From Bacillota bacterium (GTDB taxonomy: Bacteria; Bacillota; Negativicutes; CTSoil-072): a stretch of 64,000 nt of DNA. Shown here one piece after another: positions 19,372 through 46,116 of this stretch. The position numbers and the translations under genes are program-made. Below the pieces are notes generated by a model, which did not search any database, was not told the DNA's origin, and saw only the letters and a list, made by a program, of their open reading frames with translations. Where the stretch lies: positions 17,247 through 81,246 of the forward strand of contig JAGFZV010000011.1 of the NCBI GenBank assembly GCA_017889545.1, read 5' to 3'. Position 1 is the first letter of the stretch; the number at the start of each line of letters is the position of its first letter.

Positions 19372-19503
19372 GTTGCCTCCCTTCAGGCGTTCCCAGATTA
19401 CCAATTTTCTTTCCAAAGCTTGACTATCCCGACTTGCCAATGCAAGTTATAGCTTTTCGCCCGGACCTCAATTCGGTTGTTCGCGTCGCCTGAACCTTAT
19501 TCA

Positions 19504-19520
19504 TGCAATAAACGTGCCAG
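19504..19520 (-). promoter_or_regulatory. sigma54 -24/-12 promoter
   Basis: CTGGCACGTTTATTGCA, matches TGGCACG-N4-TTGC. Confidence 0.9.
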
Positions 19521-19605
19521 TCCGTCAGCAGGCGGGCTAAATGGCTTAATATTGCGATTACACTGGATTTTCACTGCATTTTCTAAGAAAATCTGCATGT
19601 ATTGT

Positions 19606-19622
19606 CGTGTCAAAATGATACG
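19606..19622. promoter_or_regulatory. Putative enhancer-binding-protein site (UAS)
   Basis: CGTGTCAAAATGATACG, identical to 22180-22196; pseudo-palindrome GTRTCA-WWW-TGAYAC. Confidence 0.7.
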
Positions 19623-19669
19623 CTAATCCAAACAAATTGCCAAAAAGAAAAGTATTCTGCCGATTCCGA

Positions 19670-19697
19670 TTTTGCGATTGCTTTATCATTTTAAGAT
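19670..19697. promoter_or_regulatory. 28-bp upstream motif, copy 1
   Basis: TTTTGCGATtgctttaTCATTTTAAGAT; related copies at 41712 and 46287. Confidence 0.65.
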
Positions 19698-19897
19698 CTT
19701 TTCGTCTGTTTTTTCCGCAAAAGCGATAAGGAATTGAAAAAAAATATAACGCATTATAAAAAAACCTTGATTCGAGTTGGTTTTGAAAATTTTCCGGAGT
19801 TTAATCCCCGTATTTTGAATAAAAAAAAGAGCTTGCCTCTCTGCAAACTCTCGTTTTCATCACACGCCAAAGAAAATGCACACCACCGATTTTTCGA

Positions 19898-22057
19898 TTA
19901 ATATTCAATATTATATTCTTTTAATTTTCTGTACAGAGTGGACCGGCTGATTCCCAATATTTCAGCTGCAACCGGCACACAGTTGTTCGCATGCAGCAAC
20001 GCCGTTTCTATCGCAGCCTTCTCCAGCTTCTCCAAACAAAGCATCTCACCGATTGCCTCACTGCTCGTCGCCGACATCCCATCGATTTTGATCGGGCAAG
20101 TAGCCAAGAGAATATAGCTGGGAAGATTATCCGGTTTGATGATTCCATCCAAAGAAGTATTCACCGTATAAATCATTGCGTTTTGCAGCTGCCGGGCATT
20201 GCCCGGCCATTCATATTCATTAATTTTCTTTTGCGCCGCTGAACTGATCTGCGGAACTTTCCAGCCTTTTTTCTGACAGTAATTTTCAATAAAAAACTTG
20301 CTTAAATTTTCGATGTCACTGCCCCGGTCACGCAACGGAGGTATATTTACCGGCAATACCGCCAGACGGAAGAATAAGTCTTCACGAAATTGATTTTCTG
20401 TTACCATTTTGTACAAATTTTTATTTGTAGCGGTAACCAGCCTAAAATCAACTTTCTTATAGCGCCGGCCCCCTAAGCGCATTACCTGCTTGTCCTCTAA
20501 CGTTCTGAGCAAAACAGCTTGCAATTCGATCGGCATATCGCCAATTTCATCAAGAAAAAGCGTGCCGCCATGCGCTAACTCGATTTTACCAGGTCTGCCG
20601 CTGCGTTCAGCACCGGTAAAACTGCCGCCTTCATAACCAAACATTTCACTTTCGATCAATTCTCGCGGCATAGCGGCACAGTTTACTGCGACAAAAGGTC
20701 CCTGTGGACGATGAACATTATGAATAGCTTGTGCAAAAAGTTCTTTCCCGGTTCCGCTTTCGCCAATCAAGAGAATGTTTTCTCCCGATCCAGCAAAACG
20801 CCGCGCCATTGCTATGCTTTTTTTAAATTCCGAGTTTTCGCCGACAATGTTTTCAAATGTATTACTCGCCACCCCGCCGGCTTTGGTGTTCAATTGAGCA
20901 GTTATTTTTTCGGAAGAATTGAACTTAAAGACGACAATATCTAATTTCTGCGTATACGGATTAAAAGCCGGACGAATGCAAATTTGGTAAAGCTGCCGGT
21001 CGCTGCCCGCGCAAACGAATTCCTCAACAGTGAGATTTTCCCCTTTCTCAGCCAAGGTCATAATAGAAGAATCACTGCTCAGAAAATCATTAATATTTCT
21101 GCTATCCATTTCTTCCGTCCTGAGCCTCAAAATCCGCATGCCTTCTTGATTGATATGAATTATTTTCCCCGTGCGATTGGTAACAACAATCCCTTCATCG
21201 ACCAAGGTCAAAGTAGTATTCAATGTATTGTGAACCGTTGCAAACCGATCCATCGCAATCTGAAGATGACAATTGAACGTTTCTGCTTTTTCACTCGCAT
21301 CACAAAAATCATTCGTCGCTTTAACGAGCTTAAAATGAGTCTCGATGGCGATCGCCAGCGAAGTAACGAGCCCTAAACTATGCAGGCACAGATTTTCCAG
21401 AATTTCTTCTCCCGGCGGTTCCAACAATGGTTGATTCAACAATACCAGCGCTGCATTGATTTCTCCATTCTCATCGCGAATTGGCGCCGCAGAAGCAACA
21501 CAGTTCTGAAAAGCTACGCAGTAATGTTCCGGTCCCAGCAATTGCACAGGACGGCCCAGTCGAATGCACAATTCATGGGCTGTAGTTCCTTCCGAGTTTT
21601 CATCGGCAATGATCCCCATTCGAGGATGATTTTCAGGAAACAGATGAGTTTTTTCCCAGCAGCCTTCATTCAGCAAAACGACTCCGGTCTTATCAAATAA
21701 ATATAAAATATCTCCGCAAGACAGCAGCATATCTTTAAACGTTTCAACCATCGAATTCGTGACCTTAATCAACAAATGATGTTTTCCCAGAATTTCAGAT
21801 AATTTTTCGGGGTTCATGTTTGAGGATGTCACTACCGAATAAGGATTGACTCCCATATTGCGGGATCGAACCCACGAAGCGGCAACATCCTGATTCATGA
21901 AAGGGTATTGACATGGGTCTTCCGCATTATTTTGCAAGAAATCCTGCTTATATCGCAGGATGGCTTGCCAGCGTTCTTGGGCATGTGTTTTTCTTGTATT
22001 CGCTGCAGTGTTATTTTGTTCATGAATGATTTCAGGAGACTGGTTTAATATGCCCAC
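19898..22057 (-). CDS. sigma54-dependent transcriptional activator (GAF-PAS-AAA+-HTH, AcoR-like)
   Basis: GESGTGKELFA, GSFTGA loop, GTLFLDEIGD, WPGNARQL, C-terminal LGISRSTLYRKL. Confidence 0.95.
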   Translation of the reverse strand: MGILNQSPEIIHEQNNTAANTRKTHAQERWQAILRYKQDFLQNNAEDPCQYPFMNQDVAASWVRSRNMGVNPYSVVTSSNMNPEKLSEILGKHHLLIKVTNSMVETFKDMLLSCGDILYLFDKTGVVLLNEGCWEKTHLFPENHPRMGIIADENSEGTTAHELCIRLGRPVQLLGPEHYCVAFQNCVASAAPIRDENGEINAALVLLNQPLLEPPGEEILENLCLHSLGLVTSLAIAIETHFKLVKATNDFCDASEKAETFNCHLQIAMDRFATVHNTLNTTLTLVDEGIVVTNRTGKIIHINQEGMRILRLRTEEMDSRNINDFLSSDSSIMTLAEKGENLTVEEFVCAGSDRQLYQICIRPAFNPYTQKLDIVVFKFNSSEKITAQLNTKAGGVASNTFENIVGENSEFKKSIAMARRFAGSGENILLIGESGTGKELFAQAIHNVHRPQGPFVAVNCAAMPRELIESEMFGYEGGSFTGAERSGRPGKIELAHGGTLFLDEIGDMPIELQAVLLRTLEDKQVMRLGGRRYKKVDFRLVTATNKNLYKMVTENQFREDLFFRLAVLPVNIPPLRDRGSDIENLSKFFIENYCQKKGWKVPQISSAAQKKINEYEWPGNARQLQNAMIYTVNTSLDGIIKPDNLPSYILLATCPIKIDGMSATSSEAIGEMLCLEKLEKAAIETALLHANNCVPVAAEILGISRSTLYRKLKEYNIEY

Positions 22058-22179
22058 TCTTATTTTCCTCCTAGCATCTTCTTTTCAGCCATACATTTAC
22101 ACTATAATCGTAAATTTCCTCTGCAAATAGCAGTAATATGTGAAGATTTCCACTTTTTATTTTACATTATTTTTGGTCT

Positions 22180-22196
22180 CGTGTCAAAATGATACG
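22180..22196. promoter_or_regulatory. Putative UAS
   Basis: CGTGTCAAAATGATACG, identical to 19606-19622. Confidence 0.7.
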
Positions 22197-22311
22197 ACAA
22201 GAACGATAAAATTATCAAAAAGAAATTTTATACTCCTGCTACAAGCAATCATCCTGAGAAAAAAACGGTCATTTTACAATAGAAATCAAGCAATTGCCAT
22301 TTTGAAACAGG

Positions 22312-22328
22312 TTGGCATGAAGTTTGCA
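22312..22328 (+). promoter_or_regulatory. sigma54 -24/-12 promoter
   Basis: TTGGCATGAAGTTTGCA upstream of the MFS gene. Confidence 0.8.
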
Positions 22329-22455
22329 TAAATAATTGCTGCTGGATAGTATTCGCAACTTCTATGCTGCAAAATGAGAATCTTGACTCTGTCGCACAAT
22401 GACGAACATGTATTGGAATACTTTCAAAGCGCAATAAATGATTAAGGGGTGTACA

Positions 22456-23742
22456 ATGGCTAGCAAGGGTAATTTTTATGGTTGGAAACTGGTTGGTGTT
22501 TTATGGTTCCTGTACATGGTAAATATGGGCTTTGCATATTATGGCGGACTCATCGCGAACACATATATGTTAAAAGACATCGCCATGGACCGTACGTCAT
22601 TCGGGCTGGGCGTATCAATTTGTCTCTTCGCCCTTGGTTTGCCGTCAATGTTAATCGCTATGACAATAGACAAATGGGGAGCCCGGTGGACATTGGCAAT
22701 CGGTTCGGCATTTCTGTTCGTCGGTTCAGTTATTATGTCTTTTGCGACTGCGCCATGGCATTATTATCTCGGATTTGGCGTTTGTATCGGTACAGGCGTC
22801 GGTTTCTCCACCGTGATGCCATGTTCGACTTTAGTAACCAGATGGTTCAAGCGATATCGCGGTAAAGCTATGGCTATGACAATGACTGCTGCAGGGTTTG
22901 GCGGTTTTATCGGTTCACCGGCAATCAACAAAGTATTGGCGTTGAACGGTGGAAACTGGCATCAGGCCTGGTTGATCATCGGCGGCATTGCACTAATCGG
23001 TATGGTTGTAGCACTCTTGTTTGTCAAAGAACGTCCGGAGGATCTGGGCCAAGTTCCCGACGGCGGAATTGAGGAAGTAGCTTCCGAACAAAAATCCAGC
23101 TCAAGCAAACTGCAAACTTCTTACCTGTGGACTCCGGCGGAGGCTTATAAAACGAAAGCGTTTTGGCTCATTATCATTGCCGGTCACGCCACTTTTTATC
23201 CCTTCTACTTTCTCGGAGCACACTGGGTTCTCCATTTGAAGGGTTTTGGAATTTCGGCTGCGGATGCTGCCTGGGGCATGGGGATTTTTACATTGTTTAC
23301 CATGGCAGGAAAAATGGGCGGAGGTATTCTGATGGATAAACTTGCCGCCCGCCACGTTTTCGTCATTGGAATTGCCATTACTGCTATAGGATCCTTTGTC
23401 GGGATCGGCGCCAATTCCCAACTAATAGCCTACACTGCATCGGCATTACTGGGACTTGGCTTCGGTTGGACATTTGTTACTTCTTCAACGATCATCGCCA
23501 ATTACTATGGTCCGGTTGCGTTTCCCAAATTATTCGGATTATTTTATTTGATCATCAGTGTAACCTGCCCATTGGCAGGCGTTATCGGCGGAAGAATCTT
23601 CGATATGTTTAACAGCTATACGTTCGCGTTATACATCAATATTGCCGTTTGTCTGGTTTGTATCTTCGCCATTTTATGTGCTGTTCCTCCTGTGAGTAAG
23701 AAGGAGCTTGGCGACAAAAGCAAAGTTTCCGCCAGTGTATAG
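22456..23742 (+). CDS. MFS transporter (OFA/MCT-like)
   Basis: 12 TM helices, IDKWGAR motif A, RWFKRYRGKAM. Confidence 0.88.
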   Translation: MASKGNFYGWKLVGVLWFLYMVNMGFAYYGGLIANTYMLKDIAMDRTSFGLGVSICLFALGLPSMLIAMTIDKWGARWTLAIGSAFLFVGSVIMSFATAPWHYYLGFGVCIGTGVGFSTVMPCSTLVTRWFKRYRGKAMAMTMTAAGFGGFIGSPAINKVLALNGGNWHQAWLIIGGIALIGMVVALLFVKERPEDLGQVPDGGIEEVASEQKSSSSKLQTSYLWTPAEAYKTKAFWLIIIAGHATFYPFYFLGAHWVLHLKGFGISAADAAWGMGIFTLFTMAGKMGGGILMDKLAARHVFVIGIAITAIGSFVGIGANSQLIAYTASALLGLGFGWTFVTSSTIIANYYGPVAFPKLFGLFYLIISVTCPLAGVIGGRIFDMFNSYTFALYINIAVCLVCIFAILCAVPPVSKKELGDKSKVSASV

Positions 23743-23757
23743 AGAATAATGAACATT

Positions 23758-23805
23758 AAAAACCGGGACATCCTCAACCAGCAGGTTGGGATATCCCGGT
23801 TTTTT
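23758..23805. terminator. Bidirectional terminator
   Basis: aaaaaccggga...tcccggttttt between convergent genes. Confidence 0.8.
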
Positions 23806-23821
23806 ACTGTCATTCTTCCGA

Positions 23822-24652
23822 TCAATTTCCCGGAACCTGAGCAGCCGACTCAATGCCCATTTCCCGCAGAATTCTTATCGTTCTTTTCGGCGCCACGACT
23901 TTAGGATCATAGCGTTCCGCCAACTGCAGGGTATTCATTACCGGGATAAATCCGCCCAAATCTTCAGGGATGTCAATATCCGGCACCATCTCAATCAGAC
24001 TGATCGGGATCGTTTTTTCTACCGCCTTTTGCACTACCAAGTCCAGAACGGTACCGCCTTCCATATTATAAAAAATCTCCTCAAAATTAAAAGGCGTAGT
24101 GCACGTATAACCAATAATATTGAAACCGCCAGCCTGATCGGCAGATTCAACAATTGCAGCGCCAATACCCAAACCAAAGCGATCGCACTGTTTGGCGCAT
24201 TCGAGGGCTTTTTTGCTCGCCGCCAATTCTTCCAACTTTTTCACAGCGTCCGCAATGGTCGCAGGCTGCAGCCCCGGCATATCCCCGCCAACAATGAAAA
24301 CACTGTCCGCCAATCGTTCCGGGCCCCCGTCCTGCAGTATATAATCAGCCGCATATTGCATAGCTGCATCAAAACAACCCCCTTGATCCGGGAAAATTCC
24401 TTTGATCGCTTCCGGGGCAGAAATTGTCGCAATAATTTGTTCCAGATAACACCGGTCTCCTGAGTGATTATAACAGATATATACATCACAGCAAGCCGAT
24501 GCAATGCACTGGTCTACCACGTCTAAGAGGGAGGCTTCATAGAACTGTTTCGCTTCTTCAGGCGTGAATATCCCCCCACGGTCTATTGTCAGCCTGGTTT
24601 TGGTTTCACCCGCTTTAGGCACTTTCGTAAAAATAACAACCGCATTTCGCAT
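23822..24652 (-). CDS. DUF2064/TIGR04282-like (CofC-fold) nucleotidyltransferase, copy 2
   Basis: FTKVPKAGETKTRL, IVGGDMP, GGF, DIDIPEDL. Confidence 0.75.
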   Translation of the reverse strand: MRNAVVIFTKVPKAGETKTRLTIDRGGIFTPEEAKQFYEASLLDVVDQCIASACCDVYICYNHSGDRCYLEQIIATISAPEAIKGIFPDQGGCFDAAMQYAADYILQDGGPERLADSVFIVGGDMPGLQPATIADAVKKLEELAASKKALECAKQCDRFGLGIGAAIVESADQAGGFNIIGYTCTTPFNFEEIFYNMEGGTVLDLVVQKAVEKTIPISLIEMVPDIDIPEDLGGFIPVMNTLQLAERYDPKVVAPKRTIRILREMGIESAAQVPGN

Positions 24653-24694
24653 CCAATATCATCTCCAGCTTACTTATAACGTTGTCTTCAAACT

Positions 24695-25285
24695 CTAATC
24701 CTGTGCAGTTTTTTCTTGTTTCGCGATTTCATAGTCTGCCGGCGAATTCAAATTGGCAAAAATTTTCTCCATGGTTGCCTGCGGAAAAAATCTCTCCACT
24801 TCAAGATAACCGACACGAACCTGGGGAAAGATATCCAGCGGGCATGTGTACCCATCTTCCAGCAAACGCCGGATGACAGGCAAGCAGGCCTCCTTTGAAA
24901 GCCATGTGCAAAGCGGTTCATTCCCCTCAGAATGAACCGGAAGCACCACATCAAATTTCTTACTGTTCGCCACGAGCACCATTTCCTCAAGCACCCGCAC
25001 CGGCAGTGTCGGCATGTCGCAAGGCAATATCAGCGCACTATCGAACGATGCCTCTTCCAATCCGGCATGCAAGCCGGCCAAAGGTCCTTTGCCAACGTAG
25101 CGGTCTTGCGTCCACCGAACTTCCCTTTCTAATGGCCGCTGCGGCCCCACCACGATCACTTCCTTGCAGAACAAACGCAGCTTATCTACCGCTTCCGTCA
25201 GCAAAGTGCCTGATTTCCAGGGAAGTTCCGCTTTATCCTTGCCCATGCGGCGGCTGCGGCCGCCAGCTAATACAATACCCGTCAT
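24695..25285 (-). CDS. mobA: Molybdenum cofactor guanylyltransferase
   Basis: GIVLAGGRSRRMGKDKA, GPLAGL, PCDMP, NLNSPAD. Confidence 0.92.
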   Translation of the reverse strand: MTGIVLAGGRSRRMGKDKAELPWKSGTLLTEAVDKLRLFCKEVIVVGPQRPLEREVRWTQDRYVGKGPLAGLHAGLEEASFDSALILPCDMPTLPVRVLEEMVLVANSKKFDVVLPVHSEGNEPLCTWLSKEACLPVIRRLLEDGYTCPLDIFPQVRVGYLEVERFFPQATMEKIFANLNSPADYEIAKQEKTAQD

Positions 25286-25306
25286 GATTTGCACCTCTGC
25301 AATCAA

Positions 25307-25741
25307 TTAATCGACAATCTCTATTTCATCACCCGGTTTTACCCAGCCAGGAATGAGCACTTTGGCAAAAATACCTTCTCTGGGCATAACACAGTCACCG
25401 GTTTTTTGCCTGATCGCACATCCACTGTGACATTCTTTCCCAATCTGGGTTACTTCCATCAACGACTCGCCGATCTTGAGTTTCGTTCCAATCGGAAGCT
25501 CAAACAGAATAATCCCGTCTGTCGTTATATTCTCAGCGAAACTTCCTGTTGCCAAATCAGCCAGCCCTTTTTGTTTCATCTTATTCACGCTTTCCATTCC
25601 CAGCAAGCTTACTTGCCTATGCCAGGCCCCGGCATGCGCATCACCTTTTAATCCGCAGTCTATTTCAAAATACCCTTTTTCAATCGTATCTTTGGGTACT
25701 CCTTTTGTCTCACTAATATTGATCGCTGCGACTTTTGCCAT
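25307..25741 (-). CDS. MOSC domain protein
   Basis: GDAHAGAWHRQVSLL, FAENITT, TQIGKECH, CVMPREGIF. Confidence 0.9.
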   Translation of the reverse strand: MAKVAAINISETKGVPKDTIEKGYFEIDCGLKGDAHAGAWHRQVSLLGMESVNKMKQKGLADLATGSFAENITTDGIILFELPIGTKLKIGESLMEVTQIGKECHSGCAIRQKTGDCVMPREGIFAKVLIPGWVKPGDEIEIVD

Positions 25742-25778
25742 GTTTCCGCCTCCTAATCAAGCTCATCCGTTGCTCTAT

Positions 25779-26276
25779 TCATTTCACCAGAAATTTGTTG
25801 ACAATGAACTCCGAAATCTTTTCATAATCATCCAACTGAAACGAAGGAACTGCAAAAGAGTCTTCTGTGACATCAGTGACAACTGCAATTAATTCATTGG
25901 CGGGTGATACCGCCCGGGTTCCTTTTTCTTTCCGTACAACCTCTATCTTTTGCTTGCCTGCCAGTTTGAAACCTTCTACCAGCGCGATATCAATTCCTTC
26001 CATCGATGCAACAATTTCATCAAGATCTTTTTTTTGGTTTGTCTCCTGAATCAAAGCATACTGGTTCGGGCCGACAATCGCAACCGCTTTGGCTCCGGCT
26101 TGCCCAAAACGCCAAGAGTCCTTGCCCGGAATATCAATTGCAAAGCCGTGTGCATCACTTTTAACAGCTCCTACTTTATAGCCTCGGCGAACAATTTCGC
26201 CAATCAACTTTTCCGTCAGTGTGGTTTTCCCCGTATTTGAAACAGCAGATACAATACAAACAATTGGCGTGCTCAC
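25779..26276 (-). CDS. mobB: Molybdopterin-guanine dinucleotide biosynthesis protein B
   Basis: SNTGKTTL, KSDAHGF.ID.PGKDSWR, LVEGFK. Confidence 0.9.
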   Translation of the reverse strand: MSTPIVCIVSAVSNTGKTTLTEKLIGEIVRRGYKVGAVKSDAHGFAIDIPGKDSWRFGQAGAKAVAIVGPNQYALIQETNQKKDLDEIVASMEGIDIALVEGFKLAGKQKIEVVRKEKGTRAVSPANELIAVVTDVTEDSFAVPSFQLDDYEKISEFIVNKFLVK

Positions 26277-26306
26277 TATATACCCCCTATTTGAATATCG
26301 ATTTGG

Positions 26307-26792
26307 TTAGCCGGCATTTCTGATCACATGTCCGCTTTTTCCACCTGATTTTTCCATCAGTTTAATATCCGTAATTTCCATCCACCGGTCAATCGCTTTG
26401 CTCATGTCATAGATCGTCATGGCCGCAATACCGGCTCCGCTGATCGCTTCCATTTCCACACCGGTTTTGCCGGTAGTTTTAACCTGGCATTGGATCGTTA
26501 TGCTGGAATTTTGGTCGTCCATTTGAAATGAGATATCGACGGAAGTCAGTATCAGCGGATGACACATGGGGATCAGCTGTGACGTCTGTTTTGCGGCCAT
26601 AATTCCTGCGACCTGCGCCACACTTAAGACATCCCCTTTTTTAATGCCGCCGCTCTTGATGGTCGCCAGCGTAGATGGCTGCATACGAACAGTAGCTTGC
26701 GCAACAGCGATCCGTTCGCTGTCCTGCTTACCGCCAACATCTACCATTCGCGCATGACCTGTTTCATTAAAATGTGTAAAGTCCATTGTCAT
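26307..26792 (-). CDS. moaC: Cyclic pyranopterin monophosphate synthase
   Basis: ARMVDV, AGIMAAKQT, LIPMCHPL, TGVEMEA. Confidence 0.96.
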   Translation of the reverse strand: MTMDFTHFNETGHARMVDVGGKQDSERIAVAQATVRMQPSTLATIKSGGIKKGDVLSVAQVAGIMAAKQTSQLIPMCHPLILTSVDISFQMDDQNSSITIQCQVKTTGKTGVEMEAISGAGIAAMTIYDMSKAIDRWMEITDIKLMEKSGGKSGHVIRNAG

Positions 26793-27769: not shown

Positions 27770-27816
27770 GAAGTACTCACCCTCTCTCCATAGCAATTAT
27801 TCCCACTCGTTTCGCC

Positions 27817-29055: not shown

Positions 29056-29064
29056 GTTTCCCTC

Positions 29065-30087: not shown

Positions 30088-30185
30088 GCTATAATCTCCT
30101 TTCCATTTTGGCACATCTTACACCAGCAAAAATAAAAACTTCTGTGCAGAACGCGCACAGAAGTTTCATTGAAAACTTATGAGAC

Positions 30186-30297
30186 GCCTCCTTTCCCATT
30201 CGGGAGGTAGCAAAATTTCTTTTACTACCCCGTGGGCCTACATACAGGCCCAGGCTGTACAACCATGGTTCGCTTTAGGTCGTACGGCTCGGAGAGC
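30186..30297 (-). ncRNA. Moco RNA motif (riboswitch), P3-containing
   Basis: CUCCGAG..ACCUAAA..AUGGU, P3 gggccu/aggccc, P4 with GAAA loop, CCUCCC-GAAU-GGGAAAGGAG; directly upstream of the Moco biosynthesis genes. Confidence 0.88.
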
Positions 30298-30312
30298 TAT
30301 TCAGTTATTTCG

Positions 30313-34772: not shown

Positions 34773-34818
34773 AGCCCAGGCAAACAGCAATTTATACTTC
34801 ATTCGATTAAAATCATTG

Positions 34819-36358: not shown

Positions 36359-36418
36359 TCCTTACTCCCATTCTGCCATCCTGCATTATCAGCAACGCAC
36401 GGAAACATTCTTATGATA

Positions 36419-37390: not shown

Positions 37391-37428
37391 TCTTTCCGTT
37401 TCCCTTCAATCCACTGATTTAGAACCGC

Positions 37429-38379: not shown

Positions 38380-38440
38380 GGATGCTTTCCTCCTGTTGCT
38401 CTTATTTGAACAAAATTATAATACGTTCGGTATTGATCCT

Positions 38441-38501
38441 ATTGTATAACGAAAGCCTATCGATTGCAAGGCTTTTTTGCTTTGCAATCGATAGGCTTTC
38501 G
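38441..38501 (-). promoter_or_regulatory. sigmaA promoter overlapped by an inverted-repeat operator
   Basis: TTGCAA-N17-TACAAT (38469 to 38441); 20-bp perfect IR 38450-38469/38482-38501 with core GATTGCAA-N12-TTGCAATC. Confidence 0.8.
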
Positions 38502-38524
38502 AATTCAGCGAACGTGAATATATT

Positions 38525-39328
38525 TTAAAATTTGCTTTTCACCAATTTTTCTTCCGGAAGAGAAAATTTAAAATCCGGCTCGTGTTTTCGCAATTCTCTC
38601 GCTTCATCGCCAATCACAACTTCAAACCAGACGCCTTCCACCCTGCGCCCCGAAAACGCAGGACCAAAGCGAACAAAGATCGAATCGTCCCAAGAATAGA
38701 TTTCTTCCAATGAAGGTTCTAAAACACGAAGCTTTAGCTGCCCATAAGAATACCGGGTATTCTCCAGAGACAATTGCCGCATTAGTTCCGGGATAGAAAG
38801 TTCGGTTAGACCCTTCGATCTCCATGGCCAAATGATATTAAAAACAGCTAACGTATGCTTGCCTTTATATTGCAATTGCTTCGCCAGCTGGTATTCGGCA
38901 GCATTCGGAGCAAAATAGGCCAGCAAAGGCAGCATTTTCTCAGCAAACTGAAATGTGATTGTCTTTTCATCGTACTCGATTGCCTGAAACCACAAGGTAC
39001 GTGTCAATTTTTTATTCATCTCATCGTATAATGAAACGCCTTTTTTCAATACCTTTGCGATTTCATTTGTCAGATGGAAATAGATATCTTCCTGGCGGAA
39101 ATCACAAATCGTTAAAAAATCGCCGATTGCCATCGTGTATTCTGTTCTATTGCACTCAAGTTGGTCTACCTTATGTCGTAAAGAGATTGCCGCAGTAATC
39201 ATTTTCTGCTGCAACTCCGTCAGCGGATCCCGCCTGCCGATAAACCCATCCAACCGTATGATCTGATTTGGTTTCACCGTCAATTCTTCCGGTTTAAGAG
39301 CCGCAGCGACTAACTTCTCAAAATCCAT
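38525..39328 (-). CDS. Rep_3 family (plasmid RepB/RepE-like) winged-helix initiator homolog
   Basis: LTELQQKM, WFQAIEY...FQF...LL, LSIPELMRQL, YGQLKLRVLEPSLEEI, GRRVEGVWFEV; RBS gaggtg; start at ATG 39328. Confidence 0.72.
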   Translation of the reverse strand: MDFEKLVAAALKPEELTVKPNQIIRLDGFIGRRDPLTELQQKMITAAISLRHKVDQLECNRTEYTMAIGDFLTICDFRQEDIYFHLTNEIAKVLKKGVSLYDEMNKKLTRTLWFQAIEYDEKTITFQFAEKMLPLLAYFAPNAAEYQLAKQLQYKGKHTLAVFNIIWPWRSKGLTELSIPELMRQLSLENTRYSYGQLKLRVLEPSLEEIYSWDDSIFVRFGPAFSGRRVEGVWFEVVIGDEARELRKHEPDFKFSLPEEKLVKSKF

Positions 39329-39347
39329 GGAGTTCACCTCATGAAAC

Positions 39348-39396
39348 ATTGTACAGTGTGCTTCTATTGATTGCAAGCAAAATCTAATTTGCAATC
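39348..39396 (-). promoter_or_regulatory. Second copy of the promoter/operator module
   Basis: TTGCAA-N17-TACAAT (39376 to 39348); GATTGCAA(39369-76)-N12-TTGCAATC(39389-96). Confidence 0.8.
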
Positions 39397-39409
39397 GCGA
39401 TAGAAACAC

Positions 39410-39444
39410 AAACTGCACTGAGAATACACTTCCCAGTGCAGTTT
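39410..39444 (-). terminator. Terminator of the MFS gene
   Basis: aaactgcactg-N13-cagtgcagttt, 11-bp IR followed by a U-rich tract on the minus strand. Confidence 0.65.
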
Positions 39445-39501
39445 AAAGCCGTCTTTCACGTTAACGTAACGCAATTGAATGAATATCCATGGATCAGGTT
39501 T

Positions 39502-40866
39502 TTAGCGAGCTGGTTTTTCCGTTACATCGGCAAGCTGGTCAAGAGATTTGCCTTTGGTTTCTCTCTTAATGAAGACAAAGGCTGCCAATCCACCGATCAC
39601 TGCCGGAATAATATAGAACAGGAACGACATCTGCGGTCCCAGTTGCATTGCCATGATAGCCCCGGCAACGATCGGAGCCAGAGCCCCGCCAAGCCGGCCA
39701 AACGCTTGGCACCAAGCAACGCCCGTATTTCTAAACTCGGTTGGGTAACTTTCTGCCATCAGAGGCTGTACCGCCGTGATCGCATAGTTAATCGCAAAGC
39801 CCATGAAAATATTGGCTGCCAGAATGGCGTAGAAGCTGCCGCCGACAAAGGCCATAATCAGAATGGATGCGCCGCCAATGAAATAGCTCATAATCAGATT
39901 TGGTCTGCGGCCTATCTTTTCAGCGACAAAGCCGGTCGAACAGTTAGCAAAAATTGCAGCCGCATTATTAGCGATTGCCAAGCCATAAGCCGAAGTGAGC
40001 TTCAATCCTTTTTCCAACATTAAGGAAGGCAGCCAGGCATTGATGCCGTAAACGATGAAGCATCCGCAGAAGTAAGTAATCCAGACGCCCGCAGTTGCCA
40101 TCCGATATTCCTTGGAAAACAAAGCTTTCGGTCCAGCCACTTTGGGAACCGGCGGAACAGACAATAAGTTTGGATCCCAATTTGTTGATTTTCCAGTGGC
40201 CGTTTTCTCAATATATTTAAGAATTTCGACCGCTTCTTCCTTCCGCCCTTTATTGGCGAACCAATAAGCCGATTCATGCATTTTGAAGAAGATGAAAATT
40301 GAATATAAGAAAGGAATACCGCCGATCAAATAACAAATTCTCCATCCGTATTTCGCTACGAGCAGCGTAGGAATAAGACCGCCCAAAACCCAGCCAACGA
40401 TCATCCACGCCATACCGAAGGTGATAAAGAGAGCACGGTATCGGGTCGGTGTGCACTCGGAAAAAATCGTAGTAACTACCGGAATACAAGCACCTAGTCC
40501 AATTCCGGCGCAAACCCGGAAAAAGGCGAACTGTTCAAAACTTTGGGCAAAGTAGATCGGAATACTTAACAGGGAGTACATGGCGATAGCACCCACCAAG
40601 GTTTTTTTCCTGCCGATTTTGTCGGAAACAATACCGGAGATTGCACCGCCGAGGATCAAGCCGAAAAGACTCCAGGAAGACAAACTGCCTGTTTGTACTT
40701 TGGTCAAGCCCCATTCAGCCGATATTTGCGGCATGGTATAGGAAACGATCATATAGTCATAGCCATCGAACACCATGGACATACCGAGGAAAAAAAATAC
40801 AGCCCAGGTAAACTTGTTGACCCCCAATGAATCTATTACTTCAGAGATAGTAAAGTTCTTACTCAC
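39502..40866 (-). CDS. MFS transporter, aromatic acid:H+ symporter-like
   Basis: FDGYD, SDKIGRKK, FRVCAGIGLG, SECTPTRYR, ESYPTEFRNTG, GRLGG; GTG start after gaggagg. Confidence 0.82.
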   Translation of the reverse strand: MSKNFTISEVIDSLGVNKFTWAVFFFLGMSMVFDGYDYMIVSYTMPQISAEWGLTKVQTGSLSSWSLFGLILGGAISGIVSDKIGRKKTLVGAIAMYSLLSIPIYFAQSFEQFAFFRVCAGIGLGACIPVVTTIFSECTPTRYRALFITFGMAWMIVGWVLGGLIPTLLVAKYGWRICYLIGGIPFLYSIFIFFKMHESAYWFANKGRKEEAVEILKYIEKTATGKSTNWDPNLLSVPPVPKVAGPKALFSKEYRMATAGVWITYFCGCFIVYGINAWLPSLMLEKGLKLTSAYGLAIANNAAAIFANCSTGFVAEKIGRRPNLIMSYFIGGASILIMAFVGGSFYAILAANIFMGFAINYAITAVQPLMAESYPTEFRNTGVAWCQAFGRLGGALAPIVAGAIMAMQLGPQMSFLFYIIPAVIGGLAAFVFIKRETKGKSLDQLADVTEKPAR

Positions 40867-41120
40867 GCACATTCCTCCTCAAAATATAAATAATACCGTT
40901 GGTATTTCATAAATTGAACATTATTCGTGATCAATTGAACTTACAAAAGGCCGACTATTTGTGTCAAAATAGTAAGGACTCTGTATCTGTAATTTTTCAG
41001 CGAACTATTTGTCTCATATGCAACGGGATCCGGAATAAGAAATTGCTCATCTGACCATGAGTAACTCTTGTATCTGGATGCCTTTTTCTTTATCAAAGCG
41101 ACTTGCTGTTGGCTCTGATA

Positions 41121-41291
41121 TTAAGAAGGAGATTTCGGTGTTTCTGGTGTTTCCGCTTTATCTGCGTATTGCGTTAAATCCACTTTACAGAAAGGGCATT
41201 TTTTTTGATAAACCCCTCCGATAGGAACCAATTTTTTGCCGCAATTAGGACAAACTTGAGTTTTTGCTGCTCCTGCTGGTCTAAAGCACAT
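41121..41291 (-). CDS. 56-aa zinc-ribbon/rubredoxin-like peptide (not in ORF track)
   Basis: RBS aaaggagg; MCFRPAGAAKTQVCPNCGKKLVPIGGVYQKKCPFCKVDLTQYADKAETPETPKSPS; two CxxC. Confidence 0.8.
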   Translation of the reverse strand: MCFRPAGAAKTQVCPNCGKKLVPIGGVYQKKCPFCKVDLTQYADKAETPETPKSPS

Positions 41292-41541
41292 TGCATGCTA
41301 CCTCCTTTGGTAATCATCATCTTTGTTCATAACTGTTAGTGAGGCGAACCGCCCCGTTCGTTGGATATTTGCAGAGTATTTTTTCTGGTTTTTTTCCGCC
41401 GCTCCACCTCCTCCTGGTTTTACCGGACCAAATTATCCATTCAAAGTTTAAAATCTGGTTGGATTATGACTGTATAAACTAAAATATAGTTTATAGCCCG
41501 GAAATCAACGCAAAATGCTTATATCGCCTAATCTGTTACGT

Positions 41542-41558
41542 TGCAATAATCGTGCCAT
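41542..41558 (-). promoter_or_regulatory. sigma54 -24/-12 promoter
   Basis: ATGGCACGATTATTGCA. Confidence 0.88.
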
Positions 41559-41711
41559 TTTGTTGAAAGTTGAACAAATCGGCTTGTAACTTGGGTTTAT
41601 CGGTTTTTTGCATTTCATCGGCTGAAAGTCCATGATCTCTTTTTAGGATCCCGAATCAGGTTCCTGGAAGTGAACAAGGCAGCAAAACCGCAGAAAAATC
41701 AGAAAATCTTT

Positions 41712-41739
41712 TTTTGCGATCACAGTTTCATTTTAAGAT
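41712..41739. promoter_or_regulatory. 28-bp upstream motif, copy 2
   Basis: TTTTGCGATCACAGTTTCATTTTAAGAT. Confidence 0.65.
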
Positions 41740-41889
41740 GTTCTTTGCGCTGCAGCCCACACTTCTTCACTTTCTAATCGAATTTTCTGCCTTTTGGCGA
41801 AACAGTCGCTCATTTTTTGTTTATGGACAGGGATATTGATTTTAAAATAACAACCCAGTATAATAAGAAAAACAGTAAATAGGGAAAGG

Positions 41890-42228
41890 GTGGATGATTT
41901 TTACATGTTTACCACAAAGATTGGCGAAAACAACTTGAGCGTGACCTTTGACGAAGCGGTACAAAAAGATCTGAAAAGCTCCTATGTGAACCCTGCTGAA
42001 ATATATAAGCTGATTTTAAACTTCGCAGGCACTCTGCTTGCGGTAAAAAAAGATGAAGAGTTTTATATTGCCAACGAAGAAACCGGCGCCAGTATGGTTC
42101 TTAGTATGAAATGGACGTCTGAAAAAGACGTAACGGTCCATGTCATGAAAGCAGAGAATATTGTTGACGAGAAAAACAAGCGCGTAGATTTGACGCCTCA
42201 TTCGGAAGAAACCCCGCCTGCAAATTAA
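41890..42228 (+). CDS. Hypothetical protein
   Basis: 112 aa; sigmaA promoter TTGATT-N17-TATAAT at 41836-41864; RBS gaaagg; terminator follows. Confidence 0.7.
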   Translation: MDDFYMFTTKIGENNLSVTFDEAVQKDLKSSYVNPAEIYKLILNFAGTLLAVKKDEEFYIANEETGASMVLSMKWTSEKDVTVHVMKAENIVDEKNKRVDLTPHSEETPPAN

Positions 42229-42231
42229 CAC

Positions 42232-42275
42232 AGTAGAAATCCCCCTTGCCAAAATGGCTAAGGGGGATTTCTACT
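42232..42275 (+). terminator. Intrinsic terminator
   Basis: agtagaaatccccctt / aagggggatttctact, 16-bp stem. Confidence 0.8.
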
Positions 42276-42294
42276 TTCAAGACAAACCAAAAAA

Positions 42295-42340
42295 GCGAAA
42301 GCAGCCTTTCCAATCAAAAATTGGTCCGGCTGGCTTTCGC
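42295..42340 (-). terminator. Intrinsic terminator of the small minus-strand ORF
   Basis: gcgaaagcagcc...ggctggctttcgc, with an A-tract on the plus-strand left side. Confidence 0.65.
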
Positions 42341-42366
42341 AATAATCAATCTTTAAACTTTACAGA

Positions 42367-42534
42367 TTATTTTTTTTCTTCTTCCAACTTCAGTTGCTCT
42401 TTGTAAGTCTTCTCAGCTGCAAACGTCGCTGATCCGTATTTTTGTCCCGGTTTCATAGCTAACGGATTCAGAGGCTTTTCAATTTTCTTCTTTGGTTTCA
42501 CCGCTTGCTCTTCCACTTTTTTTTCTTCTGTCAC
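42367..42534 (-). CDS. 55-aa Lys/Glu-rich small protein (not in ORF track)
   Basis: RBS gaaggaggtga, GTG start; MTEEKKVEEQAVKPKKKIEKPLNPLAMKPGQKYGSATFAAEKTYKEQLKLEEEKK. Confidence 0.7.
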   Translation of the reverse strand: MTEEKKVEEQAVKPKKKIEKPLNPLAMKPGQKYGSATFAAEKTYKEQLKLEEEKK

Positions 42535-42718
42535 ATTAGTCACCTCCTTCTATACTTATATTATAATATCACCTGTGAGTGGTCAAATAGAAGGTGCACC
42601 CTCGAATATGCAATGATATTAACCAAGGAAACAGTTGACCGCCTACCTCCGGCTCCCTATAATAAAAGCATGAAAACACTTTCAAAATAGAAGTCCTTTA
42701 CGAATAGGGGGAAATACC

Positions 42719-43033
42719 ATGTGCTGGTCCTGCAATCCTTATTGCGGCGGATGCAAACCGCCCAAAGAAAGGCCGGTTAGATGCCGTGCCTGCAAGACGT
42801 TCAATTTCCGTGATGAGAGCAATAAATGCAAAAATTGCGGTGCAGTTTTGCCCGATCCCATCAAACGTCCCACCGTAATGTGCCTGCAAATTGGAAAGCT
42901 ATGCGCCAATCCTTGCAATAGACACAAATCCGCTCCGGATGACGGCATTCTTAAAACCTGTCATTTGCACACTCCGCCCAAAGAAGAAAATTCGACCGAA
43001 AAACCACACGGCAACGAACCTTGCGATCCTTGA
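42719..43033 (+). CDS. Cys-rich small metalloprotein
   Basis: CWSCNPYCGGC, CRAC, CKNC, C...CANPC...C; promoter TTGACC-N17-TATAAT at 42635-42663; terminator at 43042-43077. Confidence 0.75.
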   Translation: MCWSCNPYCGGCKPPKERPVRCRACKTFNFRDESNKCKNCGAVLPDPIKRPTVMCLQIGKLCANPCNRHKSAPDDGILKTCHLHTPPKEENSTEKPHGNEPCDP

Positions 43034-43184
43034 TTCCACTTACCCTGCTATGATGACCATGCAGGGTTTTTTTTTTTGCTCGCCAAATATCCCTGTTCGG
43101 TCGGAAACAATAGATTGACATCCTCCTGTAGGGCTGGCAAATATACGATTTTAACCAATATAATCCAGGTAAAGAATAAGCTGC

Positions 43185-43231
43185 CGTGTCACGACTGACC
43201 CGCCGGTTAAGGTGGGACTTATCGTGACACG
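43185..43231 (-). terminator. Hairpin after the ferredoxin gene
   Basis: cgtgtcacga / tcgtgacacg with inner cccgcc/ggtggg. Confidence 0.55.
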
Positions 43232-43256
43232 CTCACTTATTCATACTGTTTGAGGA

Positions 43257-43598
43257 CTAGACTACCGGAGCAAACATCATTACACGGGGGCCCTTTTCAG
43301 CCATTTTCTTGGCTAGTTCATCCAGCGGACCGTATTCCATGCATTGACCCAGGCAGTGAAGAACGCAAGATGGTACACCTTCTCTTGCCACACGATCTTC
43401 ACAAAGATCGCAAAGTTGAGTAGGAACCGCAATATAGTTCCATTCCCATTTATCCCCGGTCACTTGGAACGGGCCTACTTCAGTCAATTTAATGCCCCAC
43501 TTGCCATGAGGAATTTTATGCTCGTTCTTACAAGCAACTTCGCAGCTATGGCAACCTGTGCAATATTGGTAATCAATCAATAATCCGTTACGTGCCAT
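43257..43598 (-). CDS. Short 4Fe-4S subunit of the Mo-enzyme
   Basis: GLLIDYQYCTGCHSCEVAC, CDLC...CVLHC. Confidence 0.85.
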   Translation of the reverse strand: MARNGLLIDYQYCTGCHSCEVACKNEHKIPHGKWGIKLTEVGPFQVTGDKWEWNYIAVPTQLCDLCEDRVAREGVPSCVLHCLGQCMEYGPLDELAKKMAEKGPRVMMFAPVV

Positions 43599-43639
43599 TT
43601 ATTTCCCCTCCTGTCTCTATAATTGTCTGCTAGATCGAT

Positions 43640-45907
43640 TTACGCTTTAAATCCGACATCGGATTCTAACGAATCGACTCTGTAAACCTTGCAGATCATT
43701 TGTTTGAACGGTGCGCCGAAACCAAGTTTTCCAATGTGTTTGTGCGGCACAAGGGTATTAATATTCGATTCCCAAACGCCAAACAGACTCGGTTCTTCCG
43801 CTTTCTTCTCCGGATACCACCAGCCGTGAGTTGCATGAACGACTTTAGGATGGATAGTCGGCGTCAGATGCGCTCTTTCTTTTGCTTTACCGAACATGTT
43901 TTCCAAGCAAACCCAGTCGCCCTCTTTGATACCGAGTGCGGCAGCAGTCTCCGGATGGATTTCCATTTCCGGCCAAGGATCGATTTCACGCAATGTCGGA
44001 ATTTGTCTGTGCTCCGAATGGAAGGAAGTGAATTTTCTAGCTCCGGTTGTAAGGATCAAAGGATATTCTTTGAACAGCTCCGGAGTGCTGAACGGGCTGT
44101 ACGGTGGCTCTTTGAAGTACGGAAGCGCATCATCGCCCCATGCTTCGAACAGCGTTGAGCTCAACTCAACCATCCCCGTTACAGTATTAAAGCCAGGGTC
44201 GCCGTCGCCGCGCAATTGGCCGGTCTCATATTTTCGATAAGTATATTTCGGTTGATATACACCCATCTCTCTCAAGTCGTTGAAGTCAATGCCGAGTTCC
44301 GGTTTCAGCTGTTTGCTGAAGAAGTCTTCAACACTGTCAAACGGCCACATATTCGGGTGAAGTTTTTTGCCCAATTCAATGCAGACTTCGATATCGGATT
44401 TGCAATCGCCAGTTTCAAACGCTTTGTTGATCGCGCCCAGGAACACAGCGTTACGTCCGAAGTGTGTGACAACAACGCCATCATGCTCAGCAAACGTCGG
44501 CAACGGCAGGAAGATATCGCCAAATGCCATCGCAGTCGGAGTCATGAAGCAATCTTGCACCACGTTGAATTCCAAAGATTTCAATGCACGGTACCATCTG
44601 TCAGGCTGCGCCGAACAGGTAGGAGTAATGAAGTTGCTGCTGTTGAACCAGCCCATCCGCAGTCTGTATGGTTTGCCTGATTCAAGAGTATCCAACGTTT
44701 CATCCGGGTGAGTAGTAGCCATAGCAGTACTCAATGCAGGCCATTCTTTGGCGCCGATGCGTTTGTCCCAAAGCTCTTCGGACAGATTGCTCCGGGTTTC
44801 TACACGCCATTTGCCAAGCAATGCAGCAGGTGGCCCTAAGGTGATGCCGCCAGGCACGTCGAGGTTACCGGTAATAGCGGACAGCGAAAGGATCGCATGG
44901 CCGAGTTGTACGCCGTTCGGGTTTTCGTCAACAGCCAGACCCCACTGAATAGCGGAAGGCTTGTTGGTGGCGAATTCGCGAGCAACTTCTCTGATTTTTT
45001 CTGCAGAAACCCAAGTCAGGTCTGCAACTTTTTCAGGCGGATATTCCTGAACGCGTTCTTTCAGCTCATCAAAGCCATAGCACCAGTTGTCAACGAAATC
45101 ATGATCATAAAGATCTTCGTTGATGATAACATTGAGTAAGCCCAGTGCGAGAGCGGTATCGGAGCCAGGACGCAATTGCAGAACATATTCTGCTCTGGTG
45201 CCGAGCCAAGTAATCCGTGGGTCAACACAGATCATCTTCGTGCCGCGTTTCATCATGTCGATCAGGGAGTGACCGAAGAATCCATCAGGATTGGACATTA
45301 ATGGGTTTTTGCCCCATTCCATGATGTATTTCGGCAATACATAGTTCGGATTGTCATAACGATCCGGGTAAGTACCGGCAAAGTCAATTTCCGGATAGCC
45401 TGCACCCAGAATGTAGTCGGTAATCGAGCAACGAGGACCGTAGCAGGACCAGCCGCTCAACGGATAGCATACGTTAGGAGTACCAAGTGATGCGAAGCCC
45501 AGCGGATAGTAATACAAGCATGCTTCACGGCCGGTACCGCCGAATACAACGATTGATTCAGCGCCATGATCTTCCTTCAATTGTTTCACTTTAGGAACGA
45601 TGATATCCCACGCTTCATCCCAGGAAATCTTAGTCCATTTATCTTTACCGCGATCTTCAGGAGCACGCTTCATTGGGGATAAAATACGTTGCGGATGGTT
45701 TACAAATTCAGGAAGTGCTAAACATCTGACGCACAACCGGCCATTCGTAATAGGATGTTCAGGATCTCCCTCTACCTTTACAAGCTTACCGCCTTTAACG
45801 GTCAATTTCATTCCGCATCCAACCGGATGGTCTCCTGGCGGTGACCAACCGCAGGTTCTGACTGTGTAAGAGCCATCTTCGTTTTGCGTTTTCCACTCTT
45901 TTTTCAT
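43640..45907 (-). CDS. Molybdopterin oxidoreductase catalytic subunit, paralog C (catechol-dehydroxylase-like)
   Basis: CGWSPPGDHPVGC...GRLCVRC, GGTGR, WSCYGPR, FHSEHRQIP, HGWWYPE; no Tat signal. Confidence 0.9.
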   Translation of the reverse strand: MKKEWKTQNEDGSYTVRTCGWSPPGDHPVGCGMKLTVKGGKLVKVEGDPEHPITNGRLCVRCLALPEFVNHPQRILSPMKRAPEDRGKDKWTKISWDEAWDIIVPKVKQLKEDHGAESIVVFGGTGREACLYYYPLGFASLGTPNVCYPLSGWSCYGPRCSITDYILGAGYPEIDFAGTYPDRYDNPNYVLPKYIMEWGKNPLMSNPDGFFGHSLIDMMKRGTKMICVDPRITWLGTRAEYVLQLRPGSDTALALGLLNVIINEDLYDHDFVDNWCYGFDELKERVQEYPPEKVADLTWVSAEKIREVAREFATNKPSAIQWGLAVDENPNGVQLGHAILSLSAITGNLDVPGGITLGPPAALLGKWRVETRSNLSEELWDKRIGAKEWPALSTAMATTHPDETLDTLESGKPYRLRMGWFNSSNFITPTCSAQPDRWYRALKSLEFNVVQDCFMTPTAMAFGDIFLPLPTFAEHDGVVVTHFGRNAVFLGAINKAFETGDCKSDIEVCIELGKKLHPNMWPFDSVEDFFSKQLKPELGIDFNDLREMGVYQPKYTYRKYETGQLRGDGDPGFNTVTGMVELSSTLFEAWGDDALPYFKEPPYSPFSTPELFKEYPLILTTGARKFTSFHSEHRQIPTLREIDPWPEMEIHPETAAALGIKEGDWVCLENMFGKAKERAHLTPTIHPKVVHATHGWWYPEKKAEEPSLFGVWESNINTLVPHKHIGKLGFGAPFKQMICKVYRVDSLESDVGFKA

Positions 45908-46116
45908 TATCTCACCAACCCTTTCAAGAAATTCTAAAAAAAGCTAAATTGTCAATCCTAGTTTCCCTAAACCATAACACCTCCCTTAACGCAGTCGGAC
46001 CAGATTACCCATTTACTCTCCAAGGTGTAATGCATTTTTCGTAGCCCTTGATGAAATGAGCCTATATCTTAATAGTCCGGATATCAATTTGGTTTCATAT
46101 CACCACCTAGTAATTA

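Follow-up and report, generated by a model that had tools for sequence, protein, structure and literature searches.

A candidate structured 5′ leader shared by three sigma54-dependent operons of a Negativicutes bacterium

Why should three operons that already share a type of promoter also share what lies just behind it? The question is raised by a 64,000-nucleotide stretch of DNA from Bacillota bacterium GCA_017889545.1 (Negativicutes, CTSoil-072; contig JAGFZV010000011.1, positions 17,247 to 81,246), which we call the window and whose own numbering is used throughout. A first-pass annotation of the window noticed that the 5′ leaders of three operons with sigma54 promoters, here op1, op2 and op3, carry the same two short blocks, and proposed a new cis-regulatory RNA or an operator. 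Reading the leaders and their relatives side by side, we think that the blocks chiefly serve as the arms of one long-range helix, P1 (CCGGRCUA : UGGUCYGG, 7–8 base pairs), which would enclose a variable domain of 35–70 nucleotides (nt) with one to three hairpins and end 8–14 nt before a very strong Shine–Dalgarno (SD)-like element, GGAGG(UG). We would place the whole as a new member, of narrow distribution, in the class of structured cis-acting 5′ leaders; it is found in a few groups of anaerobes, and its effect is probably to tune mRNA stability or translation.

Blocks, helix and Shine–Dalgarno-like element

Are the blocks really a property of these three promoters? Pattern searches bore out both their positions and their description (Table 1). 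The promoters are nearly identical, with exact matches to the consensus TGGCACGnTTATTGCA at all three, and each has the features of TGGCAC-N5-TTGCW, namely GG at −24, GC at −12 and an enhancer-binding protein encoded nearby; the transcription start (+1) of each leader is predicted from this −24/−12 geometry plus the sequence. Block 1, written as TTGAnnTCCGGRC, has three exact matches (19459–19471, 41496–41508 and 46075–46087, all on the minus strand) where 0.10 would be expected, and at least three were seen in 0 of 100 shuffles. It follows the promoter at 29–33 nt in all three leaders, and the TAATYTGG of block 2 comes after a gap of 58, 60 and 67 nt. These three sites are the only ones in the 3.27-Mb genome at which block 2 comes after block 1, the reversed-pattern control giving none, and only op1, op2 and op3 have the blocks among 19 sigma54-like sites. 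Three extra genomic matches to block 1 all fall in coding sequence, lack block 2 and were set aside as chance. Within the window, where a pattern search gives six sigma54-type matches, the two other sigma54 leaders, at 22313(+) and 34626(−), do lack the blocks, as the first-pass annotation said, and the sixth match (TGGCATGGGGCTTGCA, 46828–46843 (−)) sits within an IlvD/Edd-family (ilvD-like) dehydratase gene and is probably there by chance.

Block 1 was also considered as a sigma70 promoter (TTGA...TATA) and rejected, since its spacer is 14–15 nt and the promoter scan was negative; indeed, that scan found no sigma70 promoter anywhere in the leaders. The earlier impression that the element resembles no recognised RNA family holds as well, for in the leaders no Rfam model reaches the gathering threshold, with nothing beyond noise at E≤10, while the whole window at the gathering threshold yields just two matches, both elsewhere and both to the molybdenum cofactor (Moco) riboswitch RF01055.

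How, then, would the blocks pair? The pairing first proposed is sound for op2 and op3 and weak in op1, where the equivalent (UCCGGG/UCUGGG) contains three G–U pairs and block 1 pairs better with the CGCCUG that adjoins the ribosome-binding site (RBS). The predicted minimum-free-energy fold of the op1 leader is closed by another helix, P0, which runs from the predicted +1 to one base short of the RBS; comparable helices, in which the leader's 5′ end pairs with the stretch before the SD, start at most two bases from the predicted +1 and occur in some leaders only. Inside P1, the hairpins that had been reported to follow block 1 in two copies are indeed there (ACUUGC-AUUG-GCAAGU in op1, UAUAAACUA-UAUUU-UAGUUUAUA in op2), and the 5′ half of block 2 (GGRUAAU) forms the 3′ strand of the last inner hairpin. 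In op2 this hairpin, P3, has the 5′ strand AUAAUCCA and the 3′ strand UGGAUAAU, just upstream of the P1 3′ arm; its counterpart is AUAUCCA/UGGAUAU in the op2 orthologue of G001, the second of only two species genomes in this family and order (leaders of the present genome are labelled G000), and AUUAC(A)CC/GGGUAAU in op3, with GGGUAAU at 46010–46004. On a reading of the sequences, one position of this hairpin is U–A in op2 and C–G in op3, and for op3 a second register, GCUCAUUU/AAAUGGGU, is an equally admissible alternative. The unpaired flanks of P1 are conserved, AUAU on the 5′ side of the 5′ arm and CAAC on the 3′ side of the 3′ arm. Two other pairings were tried and dropped: one of block 2 with a downstream CCAGAU, which can be read in Desulfosporosinus and weakly in op3 of G000 and is absent from G001 and Sporomusa, and one of the P1 3′ arm with an ACC-containing stretch before block 1, which is inconsistent between leaders.

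The complementarity of P1 is, as far as the aligned sequences tell, clearly conserved, and independent compensatory events are few. The variants in Table 1 keep the pairing through one G–C to A–U swap, which is the one clear compensatory event, and several wobble changes. In model-fitted alignments about 80% of cells are paired, against 17–49% when the partner is slid by one to three columns, and there are 14–17 double-change cells against about 5 in shuffles, a count reached by 0 of 500 of them. A MAFFT alignment of 13 leaders, which was not fitted to any structure, gives much the same contrast (82% paired against 21–46% when slid). More broadly, the complementarity between the 5′ half of the leader and the 22 nt before the SD exceeds that seen in shuffled sequences (29 leaders, mean z −1.1). 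RNAalifold, run on each leader type, recovers P1 in op2, in op3 and in the op1-type leaders of a further family, f27; run on all 13 leaders jointly it yields no fold common to them, since P1 is broken by the op1 leaders of the G000 type. The helix is degenerate in some orthologous leaders, namely op3 of f27 and op2 of Sporomusa.

What follows the helix is in op1 the true RBS of the enzyme gene, which is predicted to be open (probability of being unpaired 0.83). The true starts of op2 and op3 lie 70–110 nt beyond the SD-like element and have a separate RBS, so that in these two operons, and not in op1, where the notion does not apply, the element fits the description of a stabilising SD (STAB-SD), an SD-like stretch lying within the 5′ untranslated region (UTR) that starts no gene. 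Such an element without an open reading frame (ORF) is the most widely kept feature of the leaders, even where P1 is missing, as in Desulfosporosinus, Desulfitobacterium and Geopsychrobacteraceae. Behind it, a conserved leader peptide was looked for and rejected: AUG GUU UAG is present only in G000 and in G034, a genome of another family, and is absent from G001 and Sporomusa. In Desulfosporosinus there are start-stop forms in some leaders and nothing in others. Three other sigma54 leaders of the genome (C1:225999(−), C18:11109(+) and C27:35798(−)) likewise have an upstream GGAGG or GGGGGG far before the true start, in one case followed by a 9-codon ORF; the habit is therefore general here and not confined to op1, op2 and op3. 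As a separate observation, among loci L059–L107 the op3-type initiation region itself (AAGUUUCUUGAAAGGGUUGGUGAGAU and AUG) is kept nearly base for base in Negativicutes and can still be made out in Desulfosporosinus, Syntrophomonas, Peptococcaceae and Desulfuromonadales, which is unusual for a 5′ UTR.

Table 1. Positions in the window of the leader features and neighbouring elements, with the arm sequences of P1 and P0 in this and other genomes
Feature	Position	Strand	Sequence or remark
Block 1, op1	19448–19471	minus	core UCCGGGC at 19465–19459
Block 1, op2	41485–41508	minus	contains P1 5′ arm
Block 1, op3	46063–46087	minus	contains P1 5′ arm
Block 2, op1	19393–19404	minus	UUGGUAAUCUGG; 3′ part UCUGGG (19398–19393) is the weak P1 partner
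Block 2, op2	41428–41439	minus	3′ end overlaps P1 3′ arm
Block 2, op3	46000–46011	minus	3′ end overlaps P1 3′ arm
P1 arms, op2	41494–41501 (5′), 41423–41430 (3′)	minus	CCGGGCUA / UGGUCCGG; within block 1 / overlapping end of block 2
P1 arms, op3	46073–46079 (5′), 45996–46002 (3′)	minus	CGGACUA / UGGUCCG; within block 1 / overlapping end of block 2
P1 arms, G034			CGGACUA / UGGUCUG
P1 arms, Sporomusa ovata group			CAGACUA / UGGUCUG (G–C to A–U)
P1 arms, f27 op1			CCGGGY / GCCCGG
P1 arms, G100			CCGGGCUGU / AUAUGGUCCGG
P1 arms, Syntrophomonadaceae			ACCGGGCUGA / UUUGGUCCGGU
P1 arms, Syntrophomonadaceae			CCGGACU / AGGUCCGG
P1 arms, Syntrophomonadaceae			CCGGACUA / UAGUCCGG
P1 arms, Syntrophomonadaceae			UCCGGAC / GUUCGGA
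SD, op1	19376–19381	minus	GGGAGG; true RBS of enzyme gene
SD-like element, op2	41405–41415	minus	AGGAGGAGGUG; without proper ORF; about 110 nt upstream of ATG 41291 (zinc-ribbon gene)
SD-like element, op3	45985–45978	minus	GGGAGGUG; then two-codon ORF AUG GUU UAG (45975–45967); about 70 nt upstream of start 45907
sigma54 promoter, op1	19504–19519	minus	TGGCACGTTTATTGCA; pattern match; predicted +1 about 19493
sigma54 promoter, op2	41542–41557	minus	pattern match; predicted +1 about 41531
sigma54 promoter, op3	46117–46132	minus	pattern match; predicted +1 about 46106
Leader RNA, op1	19372–19493	minus	about 122 nt; ends at ATG 19371
P0 arms, G000 op1	19493–19487, 19389–19383	minus	UCAGGCG / CGCCUGA
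P0 arms, S. ovata			UCUUCGGGC / GCCUGAGGA
P0 arms, S. aerivorans			GUCGGGC / GCCUGAU
P0 arms, G200/G096			CCGGACG / CGUCUGG
P0 arms, G128 op3			UAGGUGAUA / UAUCGCCUG
Translation-initiation region, op3 enzyme	45908–45935	minus	UUUCUUGAAAGGGUUGGUGAGAUA, then AUG; conserved across several phyla
PAS-AAA+-HTH_8 sigma54 enhancer-binding protein gene	19898–22057	minus	directly upstream of op1
Moco/tungsten riboswitch aptamers RF01055, canonical	30173–30306 and 60474–60604	minus	74 and 68 bits

Distribution of the leader and of the op3-type enzyme

Where else is the leader found? A search of 401 Negativicutes species genomes, by a sequence model and then by a model that included P1, found the element in 17 of them, which belong to 7 of the 110 genera. 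All three leader types persist in G001, of the same genus, and in G034, where they lie within one 20-kb island; the further carriers are Sporomusa ovata, S. malonica and relatives, the third family f27 (op1-type and op3-type leaders) and G100. In Sporomusa ovata DSM 2662 the leader is placed some 210 nt ahead of the op3-type gene (locus L088, positions 2289–2500). Outside the Negativicutes, P1 was met in three Syntrophomonadaceae genomes, where it includes leaders of a different gene, and in all there are about 25 distinct leader sequences. A wider search for P1 variants in 121 Syntrophomonadales and 12 other genomes met mostly a bare sigma54 promoter with an SD, and a metagenome scan with the op1 enzyme brought three further leaders that carry the motif and no more. 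Block 2a (GGRUAAU) is common to all three leaders only in G000, G001 and G034, and the Desulfosporosinus leader is without block 1, keeping only a hairpin, GGGGUAAUCUGGUC and the SD-like element.

Among what the first-pass annotation would have counted against its proposal is a lack of conservation or covariation in other genomes, the likeness of the leaders then being a simple relic of duplication. Conservation there is, in other genera, in other families and in one other class, and the covariation is thin. A relic of recent gene duplication is not what the genes suggest: the op1 and op3 enzymes are 34% identical, the op2 proteins are unrelated to both, and the same three leaders persist in G034, so that the likeness of the leaders is not a by-product of such an event.

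The op3-type enzyme, by comparison, travels widely. A protein-anchored scan found it at 65–96% identity across Negativicutes, Desulfosporosinus, Desulfitobacterium, Peptococcaceae, Syntrophomonas, Desulfuromonadales, Acidobacteriota and Coriobacteriales, with a sigma54 promoter 140–240 nt upstream of the gene in all of these lineages except Coriobacteriales. Its N-terminus reads YTVRTCGWSPPGDHPVGCG, and with six phylum-level groups represented among loci L059–L138 its spread points to horizontal transfer, as judged from identity. The Coriobacteriales/Eggerthellaceae loci, which have no sigma54 promoter, have a curiosity of their own: in Enterorhabdus (L126) the translated upstream gene encodes a zinc-ribbon protein with a Pro/Ala-rich tail, like the 56-residue op2 protein, and a similar gene appears to lie upstream at several other Eggerthellaceae loci. 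A minimal relative of the leader was also seen in G034 (L045, minus strand, sigma54 promoter at 2489), divergent from the op3 operon, in which a 5′ AGGUG/CGCCU surrounds a single hairpin, GGUCC-GAUU-GGACC, followed by AAGGGAGGGG.

Possible functions of the leader

What might such a leader do? Our preferred answer, which we hold tentatively, is that it most likely acts in cis to shield the 5′ region of the mRNA and to load ribosomes. On this model the three sigma54 promoters would give co-activated operons the same folded 5′ leader RNA; a compact 5′-proximal fold, together with an SD occupied by a ribosome, would protect the mRNA from 5′-dependent decay by RNase J, while the SD-like element loads ribosomes, and the outcome would be similar, high and long-lived expression of all three operons, in the manner of the STAB-SD and aprE leaders. 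The conserved sequence of the arms and their flanks would leave room for a trans-acting factor that recognises P1. It is the compact 5′ fold, a strong SD that starts no gene in two of the three operons and the presence of RNase J that suggest a module for stability and ribosome loading; RNase J (TIGR00649) scored above its cut-off in five of five motif-bearing genomes tested, and in leaders already described, mRNA is stabilised by 5′ stem-loops and strong SDs with no need for translation (PMC7509114, PMC5737220).

Several findings weigh against this answer. P1 begins some 27–35 nt from the predicted +1 and is thus not a 5′-terminal stem, and P0, which would be one, is strong in op1 of G000, in several Sporomusa species and in op3 of G128 and was rejected as a universal helix (cognate against non-cognate pairs, p=0.07). 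The fold energies of the three leaders, taken as single sequences, are unremarkable (z −0.6 to −1.6), and in the MAFFT alignment covariation does not rise above shuffles, because the arms hardly vary. Perhaps the sharpest difficulty is that a pure stabiliser requires structure and not sequence. The arms and flanks of P1 are conserved in sequence while the interior has diverged, a pattern that points to specific recognition and that a stabiliser leaves unexplained.

Might the leader then be a metabolite riboswitch? The P1 domain would be a putative aptamer for an aromatic substrate or product, or for a form of the Mo/W cofactor, whose binding alters access to the SD and so would add a second checkpoint on top of the PAS-type sigma54 activator. 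The layout invites the idea, since a closing helix directly before an SD is how translational riboswitches are built, and the same element, absent from Rfam, stands ahead of three functionally linked operons; the unpaired flanks are conserved, YUUGGA recurs in the loop of the last hairpin, and in Sporomusa ovata a 5′-end helix covers the GAGGA of the SD. We nevertheless think it unlikely. Between the arms, sequence, length (35–70 nt) and hairpin number all vary across genera, and no conserved unpaired core, such as a riboswitch would generally have, was found among all the members compared; scans of the leaders found no intrinsic terminator or attenuator, and no anti-SD or alternative pairing that hides the SD is conserved among them, the candidates not being kept and the op1 SD being predicted open. 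These three points together weigh against a classical riboswitch, as do the leaders in which P1 is degenerate or, in Desulfosporosinus, block 1 is lacking, and the fact that other genes of the island are already served by Moco riboswitches. A broader form of the idea, a new class of regulatory RNA (ligand riboswitch or RNA–protein switch) that gates translation of these sigma54-activated enzyme and transporter operons, seems to us similarly improbable; it would make an AND gate of the signal sensed by the PAS activator and a second signal sensed by the leader, which would be, for example, cofactor status or a pathway intermediate.

The sequence-level conservation of arms and flanks would also suit an RNA-binding protein that controls translation, the candidates being CsrA, bridging the GGA of the last loop and the GGA of the SD in what we take to be a likeness of the two-site flagellin leader of Bacillus subtilis, or a small protein encoded in the island. 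Indeed, csrA was found in 10 of 11 motif-bearing genomes, most leaders have UUGGA, UGGGA or AUGGA 12–20 nt before the P1 3′ arm, and the SD reads AAGGGAGG. Set against this, the loop GGA is missing from op3 of G001 and from op2 of both G000 and G034, about one GGA is expected by chance in an interior of this size, and csrA is common in these phyla irrespective of the motif, all of which leaves a protein site decidedly improbable.

Must the element be RNA at all? Of the two halves of the original proposal, RNA or operator, the RNA half is the better supported, by the complementarity of the arms, the fixed distance of the 3′ arm from the SD, the wobbles and the spacing, and RNA fits the compared leaders better than a DNA operator does. 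As an operator, the arms would be inverted half-sites, CCGGAC...GTCCGG, downstream of the promoter, bound by a roadblock repressor or by the activator itself. They do make a 6-bp inverted repeat, the palindromes GATATC and TCCGGA overlap within block 1, the fact that both arms changed in concert in Sporomusa would equally fit a protein of altered specificity, and the covariation is too thin to serve as proof of RNA pairing. Half-sites, however, would be expected at fixed or phased distances, and the arms are spaced at about 44–78 bp, centre to centre, with no helical phasing; the conserved or recurrent G–U positions (CUA/UGG and three others) would be mismatches between DNA half-sites, A–C mismatches being the rarer kind (about two events against about six of G–U); the distance from the 3′ arm to the SD, a landmark of RNA, is maintained; and no further copies of the site occur in the genome, for instance at a regulator gene. 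An operator is accordingly a doubtful candidate, on a par with a protein site on the RNA. Least probable is that the blocks have no present function and are remnants of a promoter–leader cassette that was copied before the three operons and then kept alike through gene conversion, for although the promoters are nearly identical, op2 and op3 have a common upstream motif and block 2a is confined to three genomes, the three leaders have otherwise diverged to near randomness, the blocks survive in G034, of a different family, and P1 can still be found in further families and in a second class.

Genomic setting and known systems

Which genes stand to be governed by the leader? The first gene of op1 (start 19371) encodes a cytoplasmic acetylene-hydratase-like Mo/W oxidoreductase of 746 residues and is followed, in order, by genes for a 4Fe-4S subunit, an NrfD-type membrane subunit, a Tes/TrsS-like radical SAM enzyme and a second Mo enzyme. 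In op2 (start 41291) a 56-residue zinc-ribbon gene precedes an MFS transporter of the aromatic acid/H+ symporter family, and op3 (start 45907) encodes a 755-residue enzyme of the same superfamily as that of op1, plus a small ferredoxin-like subunit. The PAS-type activator encoded upstream of op1, whose gene has its own terminator at 19852–19827, is the likely activator of all three promoters. The op2 and op3 promoters have in common a GATC-A-rich-GATC motif about 90–110 bp upstream (GATCCTAAAAAGAGATCA at 41633–41650 and CATCTCAAAAAAAGATCAG at 46206–46224, both on the minus strand), a candidate binding site for the activator; G001 also has it, and op1 has two ATGCAG repeats instead.

Elsewhere in the island, one of the RF01055 aptamers precedes Moco biosynthesis genes and the other lies upstream of a gene for a formate dehydrogenase-N-like alpha subunit (57463–59883); the listed ORF 59896–60684, which spans the second aptamer, is probably too long. 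A 58-residue Lys-rich ORF at 42367–42543 (−), with the motif KPGQKYGSATF, has Sporomusa counterparts with KPGQNYGSANF (L086 and L088, about 1527–1700), and in Sporomusa this type of ORF has its own sigma54 promoter and short leader and adjoins the op3-type operon.

Why does any of this matter? The enzymes downstream are members of a little-understood clade of cytoplasmic acetylene-hydratase-like Mo/W enzymes, which sits next to an aromatic-acid transporter and has spread by horizontal transfer through Negativicutes, Desulfitobacteriia, Syntrophomonadia, Desulfuromonadales, Acidobacteriota and gut Eggerthellaceae; a literature search for the enzyme found nothing useful. Having one leader in common identifies these operons as a regulon and gives a way in to how they are controlled once transcription has started. 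Should a ligand or protein prove to bind the leader, this would amount to a new class of regulatory RNA tied to sigma54 promoters, which is unusual; should it prove to be a stabiliser, the STAB-SD idea would extend to Negativicutes, with a possible expression part for anaerobes such as Sporomusa ovata.

Among known systems, the translational riboswitches typified by the Moco aptamer RF01055 share a helix-closed domain by the RBS and a place before Mo/W enzyme and transporter genes, and they differ in that our leaders match no Rfam model, have an unconserved interior and have neither a terminator nor a conserved alternative that sequesters the SD. The CsrA-controlled leader of hag in B. subtilis resembles ours in having a loop GGA and an SD GGA tens of nt apart, in organisms with csrA; here, however, the loop GGA is not universal, and the leaders have a further long-range helix, for which CsrA sites have no need. 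The closest likeness to our preferred function is to the STAB-SD of cry3A in Bacillus thuringiensis and to the aprE and hbs stabilisers, which have a strong non-initiating SD in the 5′ UTR, as op2 and op3 do, and a folded 5′ region in hosts with RNase J (PMC7509114, PMC5737220). Our leaders depart from them in that the SD of op1 is a real RBS and in the conserved long-range helix before the SD, whose arms have been kept across families.

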